A stretch of DNA of 64,000 nt from Mobula hypostoma (lineage: Eukaryota), in the NCBI RefSeq assembly GCF_963921235.1, contig NC_086097.1, positions 39,744,001 through 39,808,000 of the forward strand. Direction: 5' to 3'. The stretch's first letter is position 1; each line of letters opens with the position of its first letter. Positions 3,981 to 62,444 of the stretch are shown piece by piece. The position numbers and the translations under genes were made by a program. Below the pieces are notes generated by a model, which saw only the letters and a list, made by a program, of their open reading frames with translations, made no database searches and was not told where the DNA came from.

Positions 3981-6790
3981 CCGCAGAATACCATGACCTG
4001 GGACAGGTATTCAGCAAACAATGAGCTCTTTCCCTGCCTCCGCACCACCCGTACGATTGCGCTATCGACCTTCTCCCCGGGGCCTCGTTACCCACCGTTG
4101 TCTTTATAACTTATCCCGACCGGAGAGAGAGGCCATGGAGAAATACATCAGTGAGTCCCTTGCGGCGGGCATTATTCGACCTTCATCCTCCCTGGTGGGC
4201 ACCGGTTTCTTCTTTGTAGAGAAGGATGGGTCGCTTCATCCCTGTATTGATTACCGAGGCCTAAACAATATAACAGTTAAAAATAAGTACCCACTACCCC
4301 TCATTAACTCGGCATTTAAACCACTTACCGGAGCCACCATCTTCTCGAAGTTAGACCTTCATAGTGCCTACCATCTAGTCAGGATGAGGGATGGAGACGA
4401 GTGGAAGTCAGCCTTTAATACACCTTTGGGCCACCTCGAATACTTGGTCATGCCGTTTGGCCTCACCAATGCCCCCGCCGTTTTTCAAGCCCTCATCAAT
4501 GATGTACTGAGGGACATTATAAATCACTTCCTGTTTGCCTACCTAGATGATATCTTAATATTTTCTAGCAGCCCCCAGAAACACATTCACCATGTCCATC
4601 TAGTCCTCCAGAGACTGTGGGAGAACAAGGTATTTGTGAAGGTGGAGAAATGTGAGTTCCACATCCCTTTGGCCAGCTTCCTGGGCTACATCATCGAGAG
4701 CGGGCAGGTGAGGGCAGATCCTGAGAAGATCCGGACGGTGGAAGAATGGCCCAGACCCACAACCCGCAAGCAACTTCAGCGTTTTTTGGGGTTTGCAAAC
4801 TTTTATCTCCAATTTATCAGGGATTACAGTTGGGTGGTGGCGCCCTTTACCCGACTTACCTCGCCTACCACACCTTTTTGTTGGGACTCCGAGGCTGATT
4901 TGGCATTCACTGCCCTGAAGAGGCGGTTCACAACCTCTCCCAACCTGGTCCAACCGAACCCCTCCCGTCAATTCATTGTTGAGGTTGACGCCTCCGACTC
5001 CGAGGTAGGAGCAGTCCTGTCCCAATGTTCAAGTCCGGATGAAAAGCTTCATCCCTGTGCCTGCTTTTCTTGTTGACTGTCCCCCGCTGAGTGGAATTAC
5101 GACGTGGGGAATTGGGAACTACTGGCGCGGCAGTCAAGCTAGCATTGGAGGAGTGGAGGCACTGGCTGGAGGGGGCGGAATACCCATTTATTGTTTGGAC
5201 TGATCATAAGAACCTGGGATATATTCAGACCGCCAAACGTTTGAGCTCCCACCAGGCCCATTGGGCATTATTTTTTGGATGGCTCAAGTTTTCCCTCATG
5301 TACCATCCAGGGTCCCGGAATGGGAAGCCGGATGCGCTCTCCCGCCAATACGACTCCAAGGAGGACACTTCCAGCCCAGAGACTATCCTCCCACTGTCCT
5401 GTGTGGTGGCAACCCTCACTTGGGAGATTGTCCACAATAAAGGAAGCCCAACGGGATGACCCCAACCCTGGCAATGGACCCGCCGATCGCCTGTTTGTGC
5501 CTGATTCCGTCAGATCTCAGGTTTTCCAGTGGGGGCACACATCTCGGTTTGCCTGCCACCCCGGGAGTGATCGGACCCTGGCTCTCCCGAAAAGACACTT
5601 TTAGTGGCCTTCCATGGAGGTGGATACCCGTTCCTATGTCTCTGCATATTCCATCTGTGCCCGTGGAAAAGCCTCCCATCGGCCACATGTGGGTTTACTT
5701 CGTCCCCTACCTGTCCCTGGTCGTCCTTGGTCTCACATTGCCCTAGATTTCGTCACCAGTCTACCCCCTTTACACAGAAGCACCACCGTACTCACTGTGG
5801 TAGACCAGTTCTCCAAGATGGCACACTTTGTAGCCCTCCCTAAACTCCCTTCTGCTCAGGAAATTACAGACCTTCTCATCCACCACGTCTTCCGCCTCTA
5901 CGGAATCCCCGTGGACATCATCTCCGATCGAAGTCCCCAATTCATCTCGCAGGTATGGAAGGCCTTCTGTCAAGCCTTGGGTGCCTCGGTCAGCCTGTCA
6001 TCTGGCTTCCACTCACAGACGAACGGGCAAACGGAACAGGTCAACCAGGATTTGGAGGTGGTGCTACGTTGCATAACAACCAACAACCCATCTACCTGGA
6101 GTGACCACCTTGCATGGGTTGAGAATGCCCACAACTCTCCGGTTAGTACTGCCATTGGAAGGTCTCCCTTCTAGTGCTCCCTTGGGTATCCATCCCCGCT
6201 ATTCCCCGCGCAAGAAGAGGAGATTGTGGTGCCGTCCATTCAGGCCCATATCGATCGGTGCCGCAAGATTTGGGAGGACCACACACGGACCTGCTGAGAT
6301 CAGCCGATTGCAATAGGAGGATTGCCGATCAACACCGGACTCCTGCGTCTGAGTATCATCTTGGGCAGATGGTGTGGCTTTCATCCAAAGACATCCCTCT
6401 CAAAAACAAGCCTAAGAAACTTGCCCCTCGCTTCCTGGGACCTTTCAAGGTCGAAAGTATCATCAACCCCACAGCAGTCCGACTTAAGCTACCAAGATCT
6501 ATGCACATCCACCCTACTTTTCATGTTTCCCAATTAAAACCACTTTCCATCAGTCCCTTGTGTCCTCCGACCGAAACCCCTCCACCCGCCCGGATCATCG
6601 ACAACCATCCGGCCTACACCGTCTAGCGGCTACTAGATGCGCGCCGTCAGGCAGGAGCCTCCAATACCTGGTCGACTGGGAAGGGTACGGCCCAGAGGAG
6701 CATTCCTGGGTTCCCTGCTCCTTCATCCTGGACCCTTCCCTCATCCAAGACTTCCACCGGGACCATCCGGACAAGCCTGGAGGATTGCCT
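3979..6790 (+). pseudogene. pol: Disrupted gypsy pol: RT (4021-5076), RNase H (about 4970-5460), integrase (5614-6174), GPF/SH3-like region (6174-6626), chromodomain (about 6640-6780)
   Basis: [90 protein letters not shown]; several stops and frameshifts. Confidence 0.93.
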
Positions 6791-6819
6791 GGACACTCCC
6801 ATTGGGGGGGGGCGGGTAT

Positions 6820-7210
6820 TGTCATGGTCCCATCTGGCCATTCCCCATATTTCTATTACCTCCTTAATTGGGCCTTAATCCTCTCATCTGATTTCCAGTC
6901 ATTCCCAGTTTCACTAATTACAGCATACCTGGTTCCCATTAGTGAACATAGGATAAAACTCCGGTGACACAGCCATACTTTGCCAGTTTGTTGGTCGACT
7001 CTAGTGTGAGTAAACCTCGTTTCCTGATTCCTTGGGACTGTCAGTTCTAAGCTCCGCATCATTTCCTGGATACTCTACATAAACCTTGTCTCCGTGTAAA
7101 GATTCCCCTGGATACTGGTTCCCCGTTCGCAGCGGTGCTAACGCCTCAGGACTCTGCCTCCGCGCCTGTGTCCTGCACTTGGGTTCGTCCTCAGCTTTGT
7201 CCTTGCAACA
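6820..7210 (+). repeat. 3' LTR of the gypsy element (about 391 bp)
   Basis: Starts tgtcatgg just after the G-rich PPT (6804-6816) and ends ttgcaaca. Confidence 0.75.
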
Positions 7211-7676: not shown

Positions 7677-8710
7677 CTCTAAGTGGTAAATGGTATCTCA
7701 GAGTTTCTCGTACTTCAACTCTTAAAAGGATCTTATCAATTTTATCTCTTCATAGATGTGGCCAAGGCAAGGTTATTTTTTGAAAAACACATAAATGAAT
7801 GGGCGGAAAGTTAACAATCTTGAATTTTAATCTGGGTGAATTGAGACTAGCTCATTATACTGAAAGCTCAGCATGCCTGAGTGCTCATCATGAAACTACT
7901 TTTCAATCAAACAGCCTAATTATGGTTCTTCAGTATTAATGGATGGAAATTATTCTGCAAAACTGTATTCAGGATTTTAAATATTCACAGCAATTAAATG
8001 TATGATAAATGTTAAGACTGATTACTACTTTTGACCTATATTTCTCAAAGTCTATAGTATTCTTGAACAGTTAAATTATATTTTTAAGCCTCAGCATGGA
8101 TGTCAGATCTCATCTGTGCATGACTGACTCACTATATTTTAACAAATCAGTCCCCAGCCTAGGAATCACTGTCATGAGTGGTTTACCTTGGAAGAGTTGC
8201 TTGCCCTCCACATGTACTGTGAAAGGAAGCATTTGATATCCAACTGCTGTGACAGCCAGGAGAATCAACCATCTTGTGATGGAAAGGACAACCCATCATT
8301 CATGAAGTGTCCAATTACTGAATGGTTGTCTCTACTGAATCCAGTCTACATTAAGGTCTTCTAGGAAGCAATCGCTCCAGTAGATATAATTCAAGTAGAG
8401 AAACCATTGGTCCCGCATTTGCAGATTAGTCAGGACAATGATTTTTACTGAGTCTGGCAAATTCATGTAAAATCATGAAAGCAGAAAAAAATGATGACAT
8501 CTGCTCTGCAAATGTGATAATTGCTCTCTGATATTGATTTCCTTTGCTCCAATTTATTCCACTATGGAATAATTTTGTTTTGCACATTCTGATTTTTGAA
8601 ATGAATACACATTGTGACATTAGTGTGGCAGGTAAGGATGCCGTGCTCTTTCCTAATTGACTCTGAGAAAATAGTAGAAAGTTACTTTGAGTATGCATCA
8701 AAAAAGTAAA

Positions 8711-8956
8711 TCTATCATCAGTGTATGTCTATGTCACCATATACTATCTACTATCAGTGTGTATACGTCACCATATACTATCTATTATCAGTGTGTGTAT
8801 ATGTCACCATATACTATCTACTATCAGTGTGTATATGTCACCATATACTATCTATTATCAGTGTGTGTATATGTCACCATATACTATCTACTATCAGTGT
8901 GTATATGTCACCATATACTATCTATTATTAGTGTGTGTATATGTCACCATATACTA
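8711..8956. repeat. Minisatellite: 7 units alternating 36 and 34 bp
   Basis: Unit tcta(t/c)tatcagtgtg(tg)tatatgtcaccatatacta; runs directly into a Rex1-type 3' UTR (8957-9040, minus). Confidence 0.92.
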
Positions 8957-9526
8957 TCCTGAGATTCATTTTCTTGCAGACATTCACAGTAGAACAAAGA
9001 AATACAATAGAATCAATGAAAAGCTACACTCAGACAATGACTGTAGTATTTACAGTAGTTGTATATGGTTCACATGGCTGAAGGTTTTCAGCATTCAGGC
9101 TCAGTAATCATGAAGAAATTGTAGTATACAGTATTTGAGACTGCTGCTTGACCAGGCAAAGAGAAACTCAGGAACTGGTAGCATCCCCACAGGCCAGTGC
9201 TCTTGTCCTTGTAGATGGTAATTTGGAATGTAGGAGAGTAATTGCAGTGTGTTGTGGTGCAGTTACCCACTGGAGCCACGCTGCACTGGCAGGGGCAGGG
9301 GTGGGGGTGGAGTGGATGACTTTAAGGAGATAGGGAGGTTGCCAATTAGTTGTCCTACATTGGATGCTGTGAGTGTCGCTGGTGTTGCACTCATCAAAGG
9401 AATTGGAGAGTATTTCATCACATTCCCAAATTGTACATTTTAGATGGTGGAAAAGCAATGAGATGTCAGACAGTGAACCATTCGCTGAAGAATATTCTGC
9501 TTGGATTCATGTGGGTGATTTGTTCA

Positions 9527-17021: not shown

Positions 17022-17953
17022 TTTGAAAGATTTGAAGTACATTTATAATCAAAGAATGTATAAATTATACAACCTTGAGATTTGTTTACTTACAAAGCAA
17101 GAAACCCACAGGAACCCAATTAAAGAGGGAAAAAAATGAAAGACCAACACCCTATGCCCAAGAGAAAGGAAAAAAAAGATAAATTATACAAACAATTGAA
17201 GCGAACAGCAACATTCTGAACCAAATTGAGTCCTCAGGTCGAAAGCCCAGAGCAGCCCAGAGTAGGCCCAAAGGCTCGCTTATCAGTTCATCATATTAAT
17301 GAGCACGGAGCACAAAGCAGTCTGAACAGCAGATTGTACCTCGCACTAGGACACAGCTACTGTGAAGGGCTCAGGGCCTAGACCACACTGCCCAGCGACT
17401 CGCTGTGGGCCCAAATTTCACCGTCCAGTGAGAAGCAGCTCTCAAGCTCTTCAGATCAGCCTGGTGCCCAGAGCAGTCCAACCTTGCACTCGGGACAGTT
17501 GTATGGGCATCGAGAATCCACTGCCCCGACCTCTCTCGGCACCCAGCGCGATCTGAACCCGCACCCGGGCCAGTTGGGCGGGCATCGAGAGTCCACTGCC
17601 CCGACCTCTCTCGGCACCCAGCGCAATCTGAACCCGCACCCGGGCCATTTGGGCGGGCATCGAGAGTCCACTGCCCCGACCTCTCTTGGCACCCAGCGCG
17701 ATCTGAACCCGCACCCGGGCCAGTTGGGCGGGCGTCGAGAATCCACTGCCCCGACCTCTCCTCTCCGACTGGCTCATTCTATCTGCATCGATTCTGCAAG
17801 GCACCATCCCAGCTCATCCCCTGAACCTGTTTCACCTCACTGTTTGCAGCGATTATTCAACACAATTTACCTCAGAAAAGGCATTTTTAGTGATTTGTTT
17901 TTTTTTGCTTTTACCAGTGACCTGTTGCACGCAGTGCTACCTTAACCGGAAGT
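17022..17953 (-). mobile_element. Non-autonomous element, family B, containing a 75-bp tandem array
   Basis: Minus-strand 5' end acttccggttaagg; Rex1-like 3' tail; interrupts Rex1 at ccagcttca|ggaacagtt. Confidence 0.6.
17505..17760. repeat. GC/CpG-rich 75-bp tandem repeat, about 3.4 copies plus a degenerate upstream copy
   Basis: gggc(a/g)tcgaga recurs at 17505, 17580, 17655 and 17730. Confidence 0.92.
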
Positions 17954-26304: not shown

Positions 26305-27246
26305 TCTAAAACTTTGGCAAACTTCTGTAGATGTGCGGTGGAGAGGATATTGACTGGTTGTATCACGGCGTGGTCTGGAAACACCAATCCCCTAGTATGG
26401 AAAAGCCTAAAAACAGTAGGGAATACAGCCCAGAAAATCACGGGTAAAGCCCTCCCCACTATTGAGCACATCCTCAAGGAGTGCTGTTGTGAGAAAGTAG
26501 CATCCATCATCAAGACCCCCACCACCCAGGCCATGCTCTCTTCTTGCTGTTGCCATCAGGAAGGAGGTGCAGGAGCCTGACGACCCGCACCACCAGGTTC
26601 AGGAACAGTTATTACCCCTCAACCAGCAGGCTCCTGAACCAGAGGGGATAACTTCACTCAGCCCACCACTGAACTATTCCCATCGAAATGGATTCACTTT
26701 CAAGGACTCTTCATCTCGCTTGCTCTATTTATTTATTTATTTATTTAATTATTGCTTGCTTATTTATTTATTTATTTATTCATTCATCCATTCATTCTTT
26801 CTTTCTTTTTGTATTTGCACAGTTGCTTTCTTTTGCACTTTGGTTGTTGTTTGCCCGATTGGGTGCGGTCTTTCATTATTAATTCTATCGTGCTTCTTGT
26901 ATTTACTGTGATTGCCTGAAAGAAAATGAGTCTCAGGATTGTATATGGTGAAAATATGTACTTTGCTAATAAATTTACTTTGAACTTTGAATTTGGTAGA
27001 ACCCAAAAGAACCAAAAGGCAATAATCTGAGTAATTAAACAGGCTCACAGTAAAACTCCAATAATCTTGCAACTTCAGCTCTTCAGTAGTGTCTGGCCAG
27101 CAGGTTTCCCAGATTATTGGATATTACTCCTATTAATACCACAAAACAATTTCAATTCCCATTTAATAGATGTCACAGGGTAACACTACATTTTCCAGTG
27201 AAACCTGTGAGTTTCGAGGTCAGTGGGAAAGAGTGCTCCAGTGAGT

Positions 27247-27466
27247 AAACACAAAATAATCTGCAGATGCTGGGGTCAAAGCAACACTCACAACACGCTG
27301 GAGGAACTCAGCATGTCGGGCAGCATCCGTGGAAATGATCAGTCGACGTTTCAGGCCGGAACCCTTTATTAGGCAGTCCTGACGGAGGGTTCTGGCCCGA
27401 AACGTTGACTGATTGTTTCCACGGATGCTGCCCGACATGCTGAGTTCCTCCAGCGTGTTGTGAGTG
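27247..27466. mobile_element. Palindromic (fold-back) Penelope-terminus mini-element with two opposed, degenerate hammerhead motifs
   Basis: Perfect 51-bp inverted arms 27285-27335 and 27416-27466; perfect 14-bp TSD gtgctccagtgagt at 27233-27246 and 27467-27480. Confidence 0.88.
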
Positions 27467-27875
27467 GTGCTCCAGTGAGTTTCAAATGAGGCTCGGGACA
27501 GGGCTCTGGTGAATTTACAGAGAATGTGGGAAACAAGGCCTTGGTCATTTGAAGGAAAGCACCTGGCAAATGCCAAGCACTATGATTTCTGAATATGTGG
27601 GATTGCAGATTACCTGAGTTGTATAGCAGTTTCAATTTTTCTTACCTCTCCTAATCCCATATTTCCTCATGATTTTGCTTGTTATGCATGACCTTTCATG
27701 AGAGTAAATATTTTAAGTTGTTTCTGTGTTGGGCTCTGCAGATCTCAGTGAGGATTCCTCCACCTCACTGAGTGAAGAGCCTTGCTCCGGCTTCAGTTGC
27801 TCCCATGCACCTGCAGAACACGGTGCTCTGAAAAAATTCTGAATAACTGCAGATTTCTGTGTAAAAACCCTTGTG

Positions 27876-29673
27876 TATATCAATGGAAAAAAAGAAAAAA
27901 AAAAAACCCCCAAAAAAAACCCCACCGTGCAACTAACTAAAAGCAAAGCAAAGCAATGGGCTAACTTGAAACCAAACAGAGTTAAACTTAAAATCACGTC
28001 CTCAATCCCGATCTCCATTAAAACAGTGAGAAAAGAACAAGAAGGGTAAATATTACATTAAATGAAAATATCGAATAAAAGGTCCCCAAATCTGTTCAAA
28101 TTTAAATGAAGAATCATAAAGGTTACTTCTAATTTTCTCCAGATTCAAACATAAAATCGTCTGAGAAAACCAAAAAAAGGTAGTTGGAGCATTAAGCTCT
28201 TTCCAATGTTGTAAAATACATCTTTTCGCCATCAAAGTAAGAAATGCAATCATTCTACGGGCTGAAGGGGAAAGATTACTAGAAATTTTAGGTAGTCCAA
28301 AGATAGCAGTAATAGGGTGAGGAGAGATATCTATATTTAATACCTTAGAAATAATATTGAAAATATCTCTCCAAAAAGTTTCCAAAGTAGGGCAAGACCA
28401 AAACATATGAGTTAAAGAGGCTATCTGCCCCGAACATCTATCACAGAAAGGATTAATATGCGAGTAAAAACGCGCTAACTTATCTTTGGACATATGTGCT
28501 CTATGAACCACTTTAAATTGAATTAGGGAATGTTTAGCGCAAATAGAGGAAGTATTAACTAATTGTAAAATCTGCCCCCAATCATCCACAGAAATGGTAA
28601 GTCCCAATTCCTGTTCCCAATCTACCCTAATCTTATCAAATGGAGCTTTCCTAAGTTTCATAATAATATTATAAATCATAGCCGATGCACCTTTCTGACA
28701 TGGATTAAGGTTAATTATCGAATCTAAAATATATATAGGAGGAAGCATTGGAAAGGAAGAAAGTATAGTACTTAGGAAATTTCTAACTTGTAAATATCTA
28801 AAAAAATGTATTCTTGATAAGTTATATTTATTAGATAATTGTTCAAAAGACATAAGGGAACCATCTAAAAATAAATCCAAAAACCGTAAAATACCCTTAG
28901 TCTTCCAAGTTTGAAAAGCGCGATCCGTAAAAGAGGGAGGAAAAAATATGTTACCTAAAATAGGAATCGCTAACCCGAATTGATTAAGATCAAAAAATTT
29001 TCTGAATTGAAACCAAATACGCAAAGCATATTTAACGATCGGGTTAGAGACCTGCTTAAGGCGTTTCGAATCAAAGGGAAGAGATGAACCTAAAATAGAA
29101 CCAAGTGTATAACCCTGAACAGATTGTAATTCCAATGCTACCCATTTAGGAATAGATAGTATGTCCCGGTCAAGTAGCCAAAATTTCATATGTCGAATAT
29201 TAATAGCCCAATAATAAAATCTAAAGTTAGGTAATGCTAAACCTCCATCTCTCTTAGCTTTCTGTAAATGTATTTTACCCAGTCTCGGATTCTTATTCTG
29301 CCAAATAAATGAAGAAATTTTAGAGTCGACTTTATCAAAAAAAGATTTAGGAACGAAAATTGGTAATGCCTGAAACACATATAAAAATTTTGGCAAAAAA
29401 AACATCTTAACTGCATAAATACGACCGCTTTTAGTTAGTTGCACGGTGGGTTTTTTTTTGGGGTTTTTTTTTTCTTTTTTTTCCATTGATATATATAAAA
29501 TCTAGTATACTATTATGTTATCTTGGTTTCTTATGCTTAAATTACATTGTTTGTAGTATTTTCTTTTTGGTATTGTTATCTTTTGGAATTTTATTATACT
29601 TTAACATTGTATTAATGTTTATATGGCTTACCTTTTTTGTATACTTACTCAATAAAAAGATTTAAAAAGAAAA
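27876..29673. mobile_element. L1-clade LINE, 5'-truncated and inverted (twin-priming structure)
   Basis: 15-bp TSD gtaaaaacccttgtg at 27861-27875 and 29674-29688; 3' UTR, AATAAA (29651) and A-rich tail on plus; ORF2 segment on minus. Confidence 0.9.
28053..29486 (-). CDS. Uninterrupted 477-codon ORF: L1 ORF2 C-terminal region with CCHC zinc knuckle; the first 20 or so codons come from the inverted 3' UTR
   Basis: GRI.AVKM..LPKFLY, GGLALPNFRFYYWA, FRYLQVR, CDRC..SLTHMFWSCP; expression unknown. Confidence 0.75.
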   Translation of the reverse strand: MEKKEKKNPKKKPTVQLTKSGRIYAVKMFFLPKFLYVFQALPIFVPKSFFDKVDSKISSFIWQNKNPRLGKIHLQKAKRDGGLALPNFRFYYWAINIRHMKFWLLDRDILSIPKWVALELQSVQGYTLGSILGSSLPFDSKRLKQVSNPIVKYALRIWFQFRKFFDLNQFGLAIPILGNIFFPPSFTDRAFQTWKTKGILRFLDLFLDGSLMSFEQLSNKYNLSRIHFFRYLQVRNFLSTILSSFPMLPPIYILDSIINLNPCQKGASAMIYNIIMKLRKAPFDKIRVDWEQELGLTISVDDWGQILQLVNTSSICAKHSLIQFKVVHRAHMSKDKLARFYSHINPFCDRCSGQIASLTHMFWSCPTLETFWRDIFNIISKVLNIDISPHPITAIFGLPKISSNLSPSARRMIAFLTLMAKRCILQHWKELNAPTTFFWFSQTILCLNLEKIRSNLYDSSFKFEQIWGPFIRYFHLM

Positions 29674-44860: not shown

Positions 44861-46138
44861 AGGGATCACTTTCTCCAACAATCAGATTTCTGACTATCAA
44901 CCAAAACCCATGAGGTGAGAGCTTAGTTTATGCTGCAGGGAATATGATGCCTAATGTTAGACTTTCACTCAGATTAGAATGCTGAGTTTTACTTAAAAAT
45001 TCTAGGCCAATTCATAAATATTGCAAGAATTTTGTCTCATGGGAAACCTTCTTGATGTGTGCAGTTCTACTCAGTTTACATTTGCAATTTTTATGACATG
45101 CAAGAAATGTCTTCAGGTTTCAATAAAGGAAAATGGTTTAATGCAAAGTTTTGTTACAATATTTTTAAAACCTTGGAGTTCTTCTGTTTTAATGTGTCAT
45201 AAAGCAGAAGGAGAGATGAATTTGCTGTGTTAGATGCTGATACTTTTATTTCATATTATGTTTCCTAGGTACAAGTGTACAACTTGAAAATAATAGAAGC
45301 AATATTGGAATAAAAGCTATTAGAAAGTTGTAGATAATGTAAACAGACGTATGTAGGTCAATGAATAACATTTCTATGTAGATATCATGCTGCGCATCTG
45401 TCTCTATAGGAACGATATATAACAGCGTAGAATCATTTAAAGGTTTAAGATGTTAGCAGCAATTTTTCTTCTTCATATCCTCTAAATAAGTACTTAGAAA
45501 CTTCTGTGAAAGGGCCCTGTTTAGCAATACATCTGTAGGATCTTCAAATAGACTGCCAAATGTGCATGTACTCTCTGCAAATGATTAGACATAGCGTTAC
45601 TCTGCAATTTGTACTAGAGGATAAATGCTTGTCTAAGGTTTGTAATCGCAATAGTCTTTTCTGACACGATTTCACTAGTTTACAAGAATTTGAAAGCTGA
45701 CGAAATTTATTCCATTACTAACGAAAACTTTTTTTTATCTATTATTGAACTTTCAAGTAATGTTTTGAAGCAAATAAAAGTTCTATGCAGGATAAAGGAA
45801 TCTATTTACAAAATGGCCACAAATAAAATTTTTCACCCCATGTTCTTGAGAATTCTTTGTGAAGTGCCTTGCTCTGCTCAGAGTACATCATCTATTGTCT
45901 CCATAGAGTTGTACAGCACAGAATTAAACCCTTCGGTGGTTCCTTAAAAGTGGAGCCACAGGTAGCCAAGGTGCTGAAGAAGACTTTTACAATGCTGACC
46001 TTCATTGAGTATAAAAAGTGGGAGGTTGCCTGGTGATTGGTGAGGCTTTTCTTGGAGTACTGCATTCAGTTTTAAAGATTCGATTATGATTTGTTTGTCA
46101 TGTGTACATCAAAATATTGAAATATACAGTGAAATGAA

Positions 46139-48290
46139 ACATACACAAAATGCTGGAAGAACTCATCAGGTCAGACAGCATCTGTGGAAATGAACTGTCG
46201 TCATTGCGGGCTGAGACCCTTCTTCAGGACTGGAAAGGAAGAGGGAAGATGCCAGAATAAAAAGGGCGGGGGAGGGAAAGAAGGCTAGCTAGAAGGTGAT
46301 ATGTGAAGCCAGGTGGTAGGAAAAGTAAAGAGCAGGAGATGAAGGAATCTTATGGGAGTGGGGAGTGGATTATCGGAGAAAGGGAAGGGGGGGGCCACTA
46401 GGCAGAGGTGATAGGCACATGAGGAGAAGCCAGAGTAGGGAAGAGGGAAGTTTCTTTTACCAAAAGAGAACGATATTCATGCAATCAGGTTGGAGGCTAC
46501 CCAGACAGAATTTAAGGTGTTGCTCTTCCATCCTGAGGCTGGCCTCACAGCAGCACATGCGGAGGCTATGGACTGACTGATGGGAATTAGAATTAAAATG
46601 TTGGGCCATCGGGAAGTTCCACTTTTGGAGGATGGAACAATGGTGCTTGATGAAGCGGATCCCCATTTTACGATGAGTCTCACCAATGTAGGCCGCATCG
46701 GGAGCACTGGATACAATAGACAACCCAAATGATTTGCAGGTGAACTGTTGTCTCACCTGGAAGGACTGTTTGGGGCCCTAAATGGAGGTGAGGGAAGAGT
46801 TGAATGGACTTCAGTAAGGCCTTTGAAAAGGTCCCGCATGGGAGGTTAGTTAGGAAAATTCAGTCGCTGGGTATACATGGAGAGGTGGTAAATTGGATTA
46901 GACATTGGCTCAATGGAAGAAGCCAAAGAGTGGTAGTAGAGAATTGCTTCTCCGAGTGGAGGCCTGTGACTAGTGATGTGCCACAGGGATCAGTGCTGGG
47001 TTCATTGTTATTTGTCATCTATATCAATGATCTGGATGATAATGTGGTAAATTGGATCAGCAAATTTGCTGATGATACAAAGATTGGAGGTGTAGTAGAC
47101 AGTGAGGAAGGTTTTCAGAGCCTGCAGAGGGACTTGGACCAGCTGGAAAAATGGGCTGAAAAATGGCAGATGGAGTTTAATACAGACAAGTGTGAGGTAT
47201 TGCACGTTGGAAGGACAAACCAACGTAGAACATACAGGGTTAATGGTAAGGCACTGAGGAGTGCAGTGGAACAGAGGGATCTGGGAATACAGATACAAAA
47301 TTCCCTAAAAGTGGTGTCACAGGTAGATAGGGTCATAAAGAGAGCTTTTGGTACATTGGCCTTTATTAATCAAAGTATTGAGTATAAGAGCTGGAATGTT
47401 ATGATGAGGTTGTATAAGGCATTGGTGAGGCCGAATCTGGAGTATTGTGTTCAGTTTTGGTCACCAAATTACGGGAAGGATATAAATAAGGTTGAAAGAG
47501 TGCAGAGAAGGTTTACAAGGATGTTGCTGGGACTTCAGAAACTGAGTTACAGAGAAAGGTTGAATAGGTTAGGACTTTATTCCCTGGAGCGTAGAAGAAT
47601 GAGGGGAGATTTGACAGAGGTATATAAAATTATGATGGGTATAGATAGAGTGAATGCAAGCAGGCTTTTTCCACTGAGGCAAGGGGAGAAAAAAACCAGA
47701 GGACATGGGTTAAGGGTGAGGGGGGAAAAGTTTAAAGGGAACATTAGGGGGGGCTTCTTCTCACAGAGAGTGGTGGGAGTATGGAATGAGCTGCCAGACG
47801 AGGTGGTAAATGCGGGTTCTTTTTTAACATTTAAGAATAAGTTGGACAGATACATGGACGGGAGGTGTATGGAGGGATATGGTCCGTGTGCAGGTCAGTG
47901 GGACTAGGCAGAAAATGATTCGGCACAGCCAAGAAGGGCCTAAAGGCCTGTTTCTGTGCTGTAGTTTCTATGGTTTCTATGGACAGTTGTAGCCCTTTGG
48001 CCACTAACAGGGATAAATGCCAGGAGGGAGACTAGTGGGGAGGGATGAATGGACAAGGGAATCACGGAGGGGTCGACCCCTGCGGGAAGAGGAGAGCGGG
48101 TGGGGGAGGTAACATTGTGTTTGGTGGTAGGATCCTTTTGCAGATGCTGGAGGCTGCAGAGGATGATGTGTTGAATGCAGAGTTTCATGCGGTGGTAGGT
48201 AAGGACATGAGGAACTCTATCATTGTTCAGGCAGAGGGGAGATCGGGTGAGTGCAAGTGCCCGGGAAATGGAGTGGATACGGACGAGGGC
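46139..48290 (-). mobile_element. Penelope-like element 3' part (GIY-YIG remnant plus pLTR), split by a CR1 insertion
   Basis: AYIGETHRKMGIRFIKH..MAQHFNS..EEQHLKFCLGSLQPDCMNI; degenerate hammerhead motif at 46197-46231. Confidence 0.85.
46804..47984 (+). mobile_element. Young 5'-truncated CR1 LINE with an uninterrupted 367-codon ORF2/RT fragment (46804..47907)
   Basis: DFSKAFEKVPH, VPQGSVLG, KFADDTK; (tttctatgg)n tail; atggac repeated at 46804-46809 and 47979-47984. Confidence 0.95.
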
Positions 48291-48558
48291 AGGATTGTTT
48301 TGCATCAACGACAAGCACAGTCCAAGAATTGTGCTGGGGGCAGCCTGCAATTGTCGCCATCATCGCATGCCCGCATTGACTAACCTGAGCCCGTAAGTCT
48401 TTGGAATATGGGAGGAAACTGGAGCACCTGGAGGAAACCCATGCCAGCTACGGAAGAGCATGCACACTCCTTACAGACAGTGGTAGGATTCGAACCCCAA
48501 TCAGTGATCACTGGCCCTGTAAAGCTATCGCACTAACCGCTACACCATCATGCCGCCC
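48290..48558 (-). mobile_element. V-domain tRNA-derived SINE
   Basis: gggaggaaactggagcacctggaggaaaccca (reverse V-domain); box B gttcgaatcc on the minus strand. Confidence 0.82.
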
Positions 48559-61676: not shown

Positions 61677-61882
61677 CAGACAAGAGAAAATCTGCAGATG
61701 CTGGAAATCTGAGCAACACACACAAAATGCTGGGGGAACTCAGCAGGCCAGGCAGCATCTATGGAAAAGAGTCCATTTGATCTTTTGTCAGGACTGCTGA
61801 AGGGTCTCGGCCCGAAATGTTGACCGTACTTTTTCCCATAGATGCTGCCTTGCCTGTTGAGTTCTTCCAACCATCTCGTGTG
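61677..61882. mobile_element. Second fold-back Penelope-terminus mini-element
   Basis: aactcagcaggccaggcagcatctatgg is inverted relative to ccatagatgctgccttgcctgttgagtt; central CTGCTGA-gggtctcggccc-GAAA. Confidence 0.8.
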
Positions 61883-62444
61883 AATCCTAAACCAAATTAT
61901 TTTTGCTGATATCAATACCATTGTCATATGCTGCAATGGGGAAAGATTTCTGGTTGTGTACTTTTCTTTTACCGATGCTCCCAAGCCACTATGTTATTCT
62001 GTGATTTTTACCCTGTTGATGTTAACTGCTTGTTCTTCTCATTGCTACTGGGTCATTTTTAGTAAGATAGAAAATACTGGAAGCACTTGACAAGGAAGGT
62101 GATATCTGTGACGAGGGAAGAAGGATTAAAGCTTCAGGTCGTTGATCTTCAATAAAGTGCCTTGGAATACTGTAACACAGAGAATGCAACAACGTAGAGC
62201 AATGTATACTAAGAGTGAAATACACCATTCGAATCATATACAGTCTTGACAAGCTGATAAATCTGCATGTTCCACTCTGTAACTCACAGAAAAAAATTAA
62301 TGCAGCTACAGCAAATAATCCAGAAAGCAAACAGAACATCATTATTTACGGTTTGGGTAGCTGAACACACAGTGAGGAGGTTAACCTTCAGTTACTTAGG
62401 GCATTGGTGAACTTCTTCTGGGGTATTATGTCCAATATTGGTCT

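Follow-up and report, generated by a model that had tools for sequence, protein, structure and literature searches.

The window, the whole 64-kb stretch of DNA that we analysed, contains at 27233-27480 a short fold-back insert of 220 bp (27247-27466), which lies between the two copies of a 14-bp target-site duplication (TSD). The insert consists of two 5′-truncated termini of one Penelope-like element (PLE) family, placed head to head, of which one ends with a 38-bp tail and the other is tail-less; they meet at 27373/27374. Its parts are the following.

27233-27246, + strand: left TSD, GTGCTCCAGTGAGT, 14 bp, found by direct-repeat comparison and absent together with the insert from a contig of organism C (below), in which one copy is kept
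27247-27284, − strand: one-sided Penelope-like tail of 38 bp, on the left arm only, from the arm alignment (tail type as in the available parts of PMC8557442 and PMC11167929)
27285-27335, − strand: outer 51 bp of the left arm, the perfect complement of 27416-27466, with a family-rare base at 27314
27336-27373, − strand: inner 38 bp of the left arm, a minimal hammerhead judged to be dead
27374-27377, + strand: 4-nt turn, CAGT, formed by the opening bases of right-arm stem I
27374-27411, + strand: minimal type I hammerhead of the right arm, from motif scan and fold
27416-27466, + strand: outer 51 bp of the right arm, finishing at the tail-less terminus, with a family-rare base at 27437
27467-27480, + strand: right TSD, 14 bp, GTGCTCCAGTGAGT, found by direct-repeat comparison

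A sequence-only reading of this DNA had described a 220-bp fold-back with a 14-bp TSD and a perfect 51-bp stem, and re-measurement gave the same figures: the TSD copies agree at 14 of 14 positions (27233-27246 vs 27467-27480), and 27285-27335 pairs without a mismatch with 27416-27466. The roughly 9 transitions that it had counted in an inner segment of about 40 bp are exactly 9 differences, all transitions, in 38 paired columns (27336-27373 with 27378-27415). The unit is asymmetric: the left arm is 38 bases longer than the right (27247-27284), a tail that had been overlooked. The arm alignment and the reading of the cores do support the proposed Penelope termini, facing outward and carrying damaged hammerheads. 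Furthermore, each strand is predicted to fold as a hairpin of 89 bp, with energies of -177 and -165 kcal/mol (none of 200 shuffles equally stable; z about -22 to -24), so that the double-stranded RNA of about 90 bp envisaged for transcripts of either strand would indeed be expected.

Core positions of the hammerhead are numbered here partly according to general convention. The numbering also follows the available part of PMC4209133. In the right arm, the core CTGACGG (+ strand, 27379-27385) lies within a stem I made of 27374-27378 and 27407-27411, and after it come one additional A, stem II (4 bp), GAAA and the triplet (27404-27406), which reads GTT instead of GTC; within the core, G replaces A9. 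The left-arm core, CTAATAA (− strand, 27372-27366), has G5 and G8 changed to A and C11.1 to U, and 4 of the 5 bases of the stem I 5′ strand are missing. A motif scan found the architecture of the minimal hammerhead ribozyme (min-HHR), that is, the core, an extra base after position 9 and stems I and II, in the right arm and in a solo copy at 2.3 kb. Neither arm keeps an intact catalytic core, as had been claimed from the same two core sequences: the right one has G in place of A9, and in the left one both G5 and G8 have become A. Rfam at its gathering score gave no matches in the 64-kb window. Loss of G8 abolishes cleavage by a PLE ribozyme, according to the available text of PMC11167929, and both ribozymes of the insert are, judging from their sequence, dead. 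Any transcript of the insert would carry a single motif in sense, buried inside the hairpin of the predicted fold, and the dimer needed by the hammerhead motifs could therefore probably not form. The ribozyme cut site was considered as the position of the turn and rejected, as the cut would come after 27406 and the turn is at 27373/27374.

The terminus of the insert matches six other places in the window.

2256-2384: solo copy without a tail, about 98 bp long, flanked by direct repeats of 17 bp (1 mismatch)
About 39 kb: terminus fragment
About 40.7 kb: tailed stub
46138-46777, − strand: the same terminus ending a longer decayed copy, a separate insertion, given for context
61679-61884: second head-to-head fold-back, with a tail, another junction and no homogenised stem, a separate insertion
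About 63 kb: second long copy

The tail is present in the 27-kb insert and the 61-kb and 40-kb copies, and absent from the 2.3-kb, 46-kb and 63-kb copies. In the 2.3-kb solo copy the hammerhead core is intact, with C11.1 changed. The decayed PLE at 46138-48359 (− strand) has GIY-YIG-like and RT-end-like frames and is interrupted at 46804-47907 by a well-preserved RT fragment, which we take to be of CR1 type. For a 106-aa frame upstream of the 46-kb terminus the nearest Atlas clusters are GIY-YIG (score 0.94, with the family on 51-63% of members), Pfam returned no families for either of the two ORF pieces of the 46-kb copy, and no intact ORF was found in the window. At the sequence level, the tie between the terminus and an element with an RT-endonuclease ORF is suggestive.

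Several details of the short copies concern how their ends were made. The three short copies that reach the hammerhead (2270-2276, 27374 and 61793) stop within about 2-4 bases of the 5′ edge of stem I (CAGTC), and not at the cut site, and one arm begins exactly at CAGTCCTGA in both fold-backs (27 kb and 61.7 kb). The shared stop near CAGTC may mark a preferred reverse-transcriptase stop or a joining point. At its turn, the 61679-61884 fold-back has a CTG/CAG overlap, which is compatible with snap-back or with joining at a microhomology; the cores of its two arms are not the same (CTGAC vs CTGCT, the latter common to the 63-kb copy), a hint that two different templates were used. A TSD was looked for around this fold-back and not found. 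Elsewhere in the window lie a 482-aa stop-free frame at 28053-29501, 570 bp from the insert, which presumably resembles the C-terminal part of an L1/Tx1-type ORF2; decayed pol frames at 3997-6967, which we take to be those of a Gypsy-type LTR retrotransposon (RT, RNase H, integrase and a chromodomain-like part); and two tandem arrays, at 8710-8958 and 17467-17760, with units of about 70 bp and 75 bp.

We compared the window with contigs from 4 of 24 listed public runs: X1 (the window's own species), X5 (organism B), X9 (organism C) and X17. Summed contig depth over the insert, which is not a copy number, reaches 10^5 to 3x10^6 in X1, against about 15-60 on the unique flanks; as the depth over the insert exceeds that of the unique flanks by orders of magnitude in the four public runs, the family must be very abundant. 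Motif scans for the family in viral contigs, metagenome contigs and prokaryote genomes gave no matches. Repeats of this kind suggest a cartilaginous fish as the probable host. A variant of the family that skips 41 internal bases, at 27287-27329, has in X9 a depth of 82, vs about 5 on the unique flank, and is a small amplified deletion derivative in organism C.

These contigs also date the insert. One contig of organism C (X9, contig 25, depth 5.4) covers 26964-27207 and 27470-27860 with 25 letters between the flanks, where an empty orthologous site predicts 28; its flanks differ from the window at 47 of 635 positions (7.4%). The site is filled in organism B: contigs of X5 enter the insert from both flanks by 27 and 25 letters, overlaps that are shorter than the 31-letter bridging rule, and the sequence differs from the window at 11 of 725 positions (1.5%). 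Contigs of the window's own species (X1) enter the insert by 23 and 24 letters. With an empty ortholog in organism C and a filled one in organism B, this is a true insertion with a TSD, younger than the divergence from organism C and older than that from organism B.

The insert thus combines an inverted, 5′-truncated head-to-head copy, a tail of the 30-40-bp kind at one end, and a TSD whose empty counterpart is seen in a relative; these are three of the four features tested, and on them it is a minimal inverted PLE insertion. PLE insertions typically include inverted 5′-truncated copies and a tail of 30-40 bp on one side (PMC8557442, in the part available). The accessible text of PMC3846280 gives head to head as the commonest PLE arrangement, rotifer TSDs as 8-10 bp, and self-priming as a proposed cause. 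In vitro, the protein of a lizard PLE cleaves the two target strands and extends both; its reverse transcription begins at two internal sites, one at either border of the tail, with no need for the ribozyme (PMC11167929, likewise in part). The anatomy of the insert would fit such two-start, both-strand priming directly.

We consider it probable that the insert is a single dead-on-arrival insertion of an endonuclease-positive PLE. The PLE enzyme would have cut the two target strands 14 nt apart, and the 3′ ends of both strands would have served as primers for reverse transcription, each with a different one of the two internal start sites, such that on the top strand the TSD continues into the tailed start and on the bottom strand into the tail-less start. 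Both cDNAs may then have ended at the hammerhead's 5′ edge before being joined, or the joining could have been by snap-back self-priming. The 27373/27374 junction is without microhomology, unlike that of the 61.7-kb fold-back. GTGAGT is common to the target and the tail-less end of the element, with TGCT just past it (27233-27246 and 27460-27471), which may be priming microhomology on the bottom strand, or chance. After its integration the insert would have decayed neutrally, mainly at CpG, with the loss of both cores. A later replication template switch, or an equivalent hairpin repair, is on balance the step by which the outer part of one arm would have been recopied from the other; the inner stem would act as the primer in such an intramolecular switch and would stay diverged as the outer part became perfect. 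Clean two-armed inserts with a TSD and an empty ortholog record the end of the PLE integration step, be it two primed strands or snap-back.

The sequence-only reading had offered, as one of two possibilities, an independent non-autonomous family in which the entire hairpin spreads as a unit, its ribozymes having been inactivated beforehand. Such a unit would have, at both ends, the termini that PLE enzymes require, and non-autonomous PLE derivatives are known (PMC8557442 and bioRxiv 10.64898/2026.07.22.740005, each in part). However, the exact junction has a single match in the 64-kb window, to which this count is confined; the only near match is the different junction of the 61.7-kb fold-back, the second one in the window. 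Of the 12 rows of joints listed (84 in all), 11 are from run X1, and 8 of these 11 connect the left arm with the right, no two of them at the same place; their depth of 18-31, compared with about 14 on the unique flank, is near the single-copy level. The best-supported fold-back joint (among 15 rows listed out of 300) has a depth of 42 from two contigs, and the listed fold-back joints as a whole, all different, thus span depths of 18-42. A copy with the exact 27373/27374 junction would not appear as a joint in the contig listing; none of 32 listed pieces (of 76,942) crosses that position, which is a weak test because the locus's own centre is absent from those pieces too. Furthermore, the two arms have lost different halves of their shared CpG sites, as decay in place predicts, and predicted folds suggest that in an RNA closed into an 89-bp hairpin the tail-less start site would be hidden. 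We regard a hairpin family of this kind as improbable. Fold-backs look common in the PLE family, each apparently made separately.

A single PLE insertion leaves the perfect outer stem to be explained. Of the 9 inner differences, 7 fall in CpG columns. CpG columns, which were called from the arms themselves, make up 12 of 38 inner and 6 of 51 outer columns. The outer 51 bp show no differences, against 5.75 expected at the inner rates. With uniform placement, a perfect run of at least 51 anywhere has p 0.0026; permutation stratified by CpG column gives p 0.0038, and permutation by CpG site p 0.0063, all of these values being post hoc for a single locus that was picked for looking perfect. An earlier remark that perfect arms and a perfect TSD beside a diverged centre are unexpected accordingly applies to the outer stem (p 0.0026-0.0063, post hoc) and not to the TSD: at the age of the insert, a perfect 14-bp TSD has P 0.34-0.81, and we rejected it as an anomaly. 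An intrinsically slow outer segment was also rejected, as four independent copies in the window diverge alike in both segments (67 of 228 and 83 of 306).

Both arms share a transversion at 27314/27437 that is missing from 96% and 90% of the depth summed over the family in X1, and from all 6 other rows in the window. Of the other five differences common to both arms, four are common subfamily states and one is not among the rows listed. Template switching can even out the arms of an inverted repeat when the growing strand turns back on itself and takes the first arm as its template (PMC8604942, in the part available). Because the outer stem has 0 differences in 51 bp where 5.75 are expected, and because the arms share a rare transversion, we lean towards later arm-to-arm copying by template switching as the best explanation of the perfect stem. 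The homogenisation by conversion that had been suggested for the arms is moderately supported, by these p-values and the shared rare base, for the outer 51 bp only; the inner 38 bp are still diverged. Against recopying, the 61.7-kb fold-back has 12 differences in its outer 51 and shows no homogenisation, the rare base could have come from the source element, and the case is one locus, chosen for its perfection, with CpG columns taken from its own arms.

The main rival is the same PLE insertion with no recopying: the arms were identical at birth, the CpG-rich hammerhead decayed fast, and the outer stem stayed perfect by luck and case selection. The source element would then already carry the rare base, and the distribution of CpG columns (12 of 38 inside, 6 of 51 outside) would leave the centre more exposed. 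At the young end of the age range (1.5%), a perfect 51 bp has P 0.46; moreover, the case was picked from a reading of very many stretches of DNA, and the family has very many fold-backs. However, the extent of the inner decay requires an age towards the old end of the range, where the 5.75 outer differences would be expected; p stays at 0.004-0.006 when CpG is taken into account; and the outer segment is not intrinsically slow. Chance with case selection is a possible but doubtful account.

The stem might also be an artefact of assembly or polishing, with the reads of one arm overwriting the other. Identical arms collapse in contig graphs, and unique X1 contigs confirm only 27443-27466 of the right arm, together with the tail, leaving the left outer arm without base-by-base contig confirmation. 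Yet X1 agrees with the window, at 0 differences, over the two flanks and the two stretches that enter the insert, a fraction of 0.89 of the window's sampled words is present in X1, and the differences of the inner arms are kept, though a collapse should have erased them too. We consider an artefact highly improbable.

Another reading is that selection kept the outer stem as a dsRNA hairpin, a substrate for Dicer or ADAR. In the 89-bp stem predicted for the + strand, 7 of the 9 mismatches are G-U pairs and only two are A-C. This 7:2 split is not significant (p 0.18), and the G-U excess was rejected as a sign of selection. Moreover, the insert is lineage-limited, selection for pairing would allow G-U in the outer stem, where there is none, and no host gene was identified around the insert. 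In X17, presumed to be an RNA run, contigs contain sequences of the family and leave the unique flanks without cover, which is no evidence either way on transcription. We consider selection on the hairpin highly improbable.

If the outer arms were indeed recopied, this could be a general second life of minimal PLE fold-backs, in which the arms are identical at birth and template switching resets the outer stem while the hammerhead centre decays; we offer this only tentatively and think it rather unlikely. Were it true, the genomes of cartilaginous fish would contain thousands of natural, dated reporters of quasi-palindrome conversion in the vertebrate germline, each fold-back carrying its TSD clock and often a datable empty ortholog, and also a self-renewing pool of long near-perfect dsRNA hairpins.

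Several known systems produce inserts of similar shape. MITEs have a hairpin shape with a TSD and transposase-type symmetric ends; the insert is like them in its hairpin and TSD, and unlike them in its unequal ends, one of which bears the tail. In L1 twin priming, inverted junctions arise from two primed target strands, and the two parts copy different segments of one RNA, whereas both arms of the insert copy the same segment.

With the inverted insertion units of EN+ PLEs (PMC3846280, PMC8557442 and PMC11167929, in the parts available), the insert shares head-to-head 5′-truncated termini, a one-sided 30-40-bp tail, a TSD and a hammerhead in the terminus. It differs from them in being the shortest form, with no ORF and no direct pLTR between the arms, and hence one whole hairpin, and in its identical outer arms beside decayed inner arms, a combination not found described in those parts or in the literature searched. 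Neither arm homogenisation in PLE fold-backs nor such elements in cartilaginous fish were found in the literature searched, with subscription papers mostly outside it, and the supplements of PMC4209133, PMC11167929 and bioRxiv 10.64898/2026.07.22.740005 may list them; PMC6155905, in part, was a background source. The min-HHRs of metazoan PLEs, in the available text of PMC4209133, resemble the insert's motifs in the 5-bp stem I, the extra base between 9 and 10.1, G10.1-C11.1, the palindromic 15.2-16.2 and the lack of stem III. They have a stem II of 6-8 bp, compared with 4 bp here, and in the insert both cores are mutated and the motifs lie on opposite strands, which leaves one per transcript and no dimer. 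Non-LTR retrozymes (bioRxiv 10.64898/2026.07.22.740005, in part) are likewise short, non-coding, PLE-derived and hammerhead-bearing, but they are head-to-tail tandems with intact ribozymes, and the insert is head to head with dead cores; we rejected a retrozyme identity, as the arrangement is inverted rather than tandem and the cores are mutated.

The template-switch homogenisation in the available part of PMC8604942 is similar in that one arm templates the other and differences are erased over a tract. Those cases concern yeast arms of about 10-16 bp, whereas here the tract is up to 51 bp, in a vertebrate retroelement relic, and would be deduced from one locus without a pre-event allele. The insert is ordinary in kind, a new example of the described Penelope insertion pattern and a dead two-armed remnant; as an element it matters little, being the shortest form of that pattern. 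If its outer-perfect, inner-decayed profile recurs across the family, it would allow template switching between the arms of long vertebrate inverted repeats to be measured directly.
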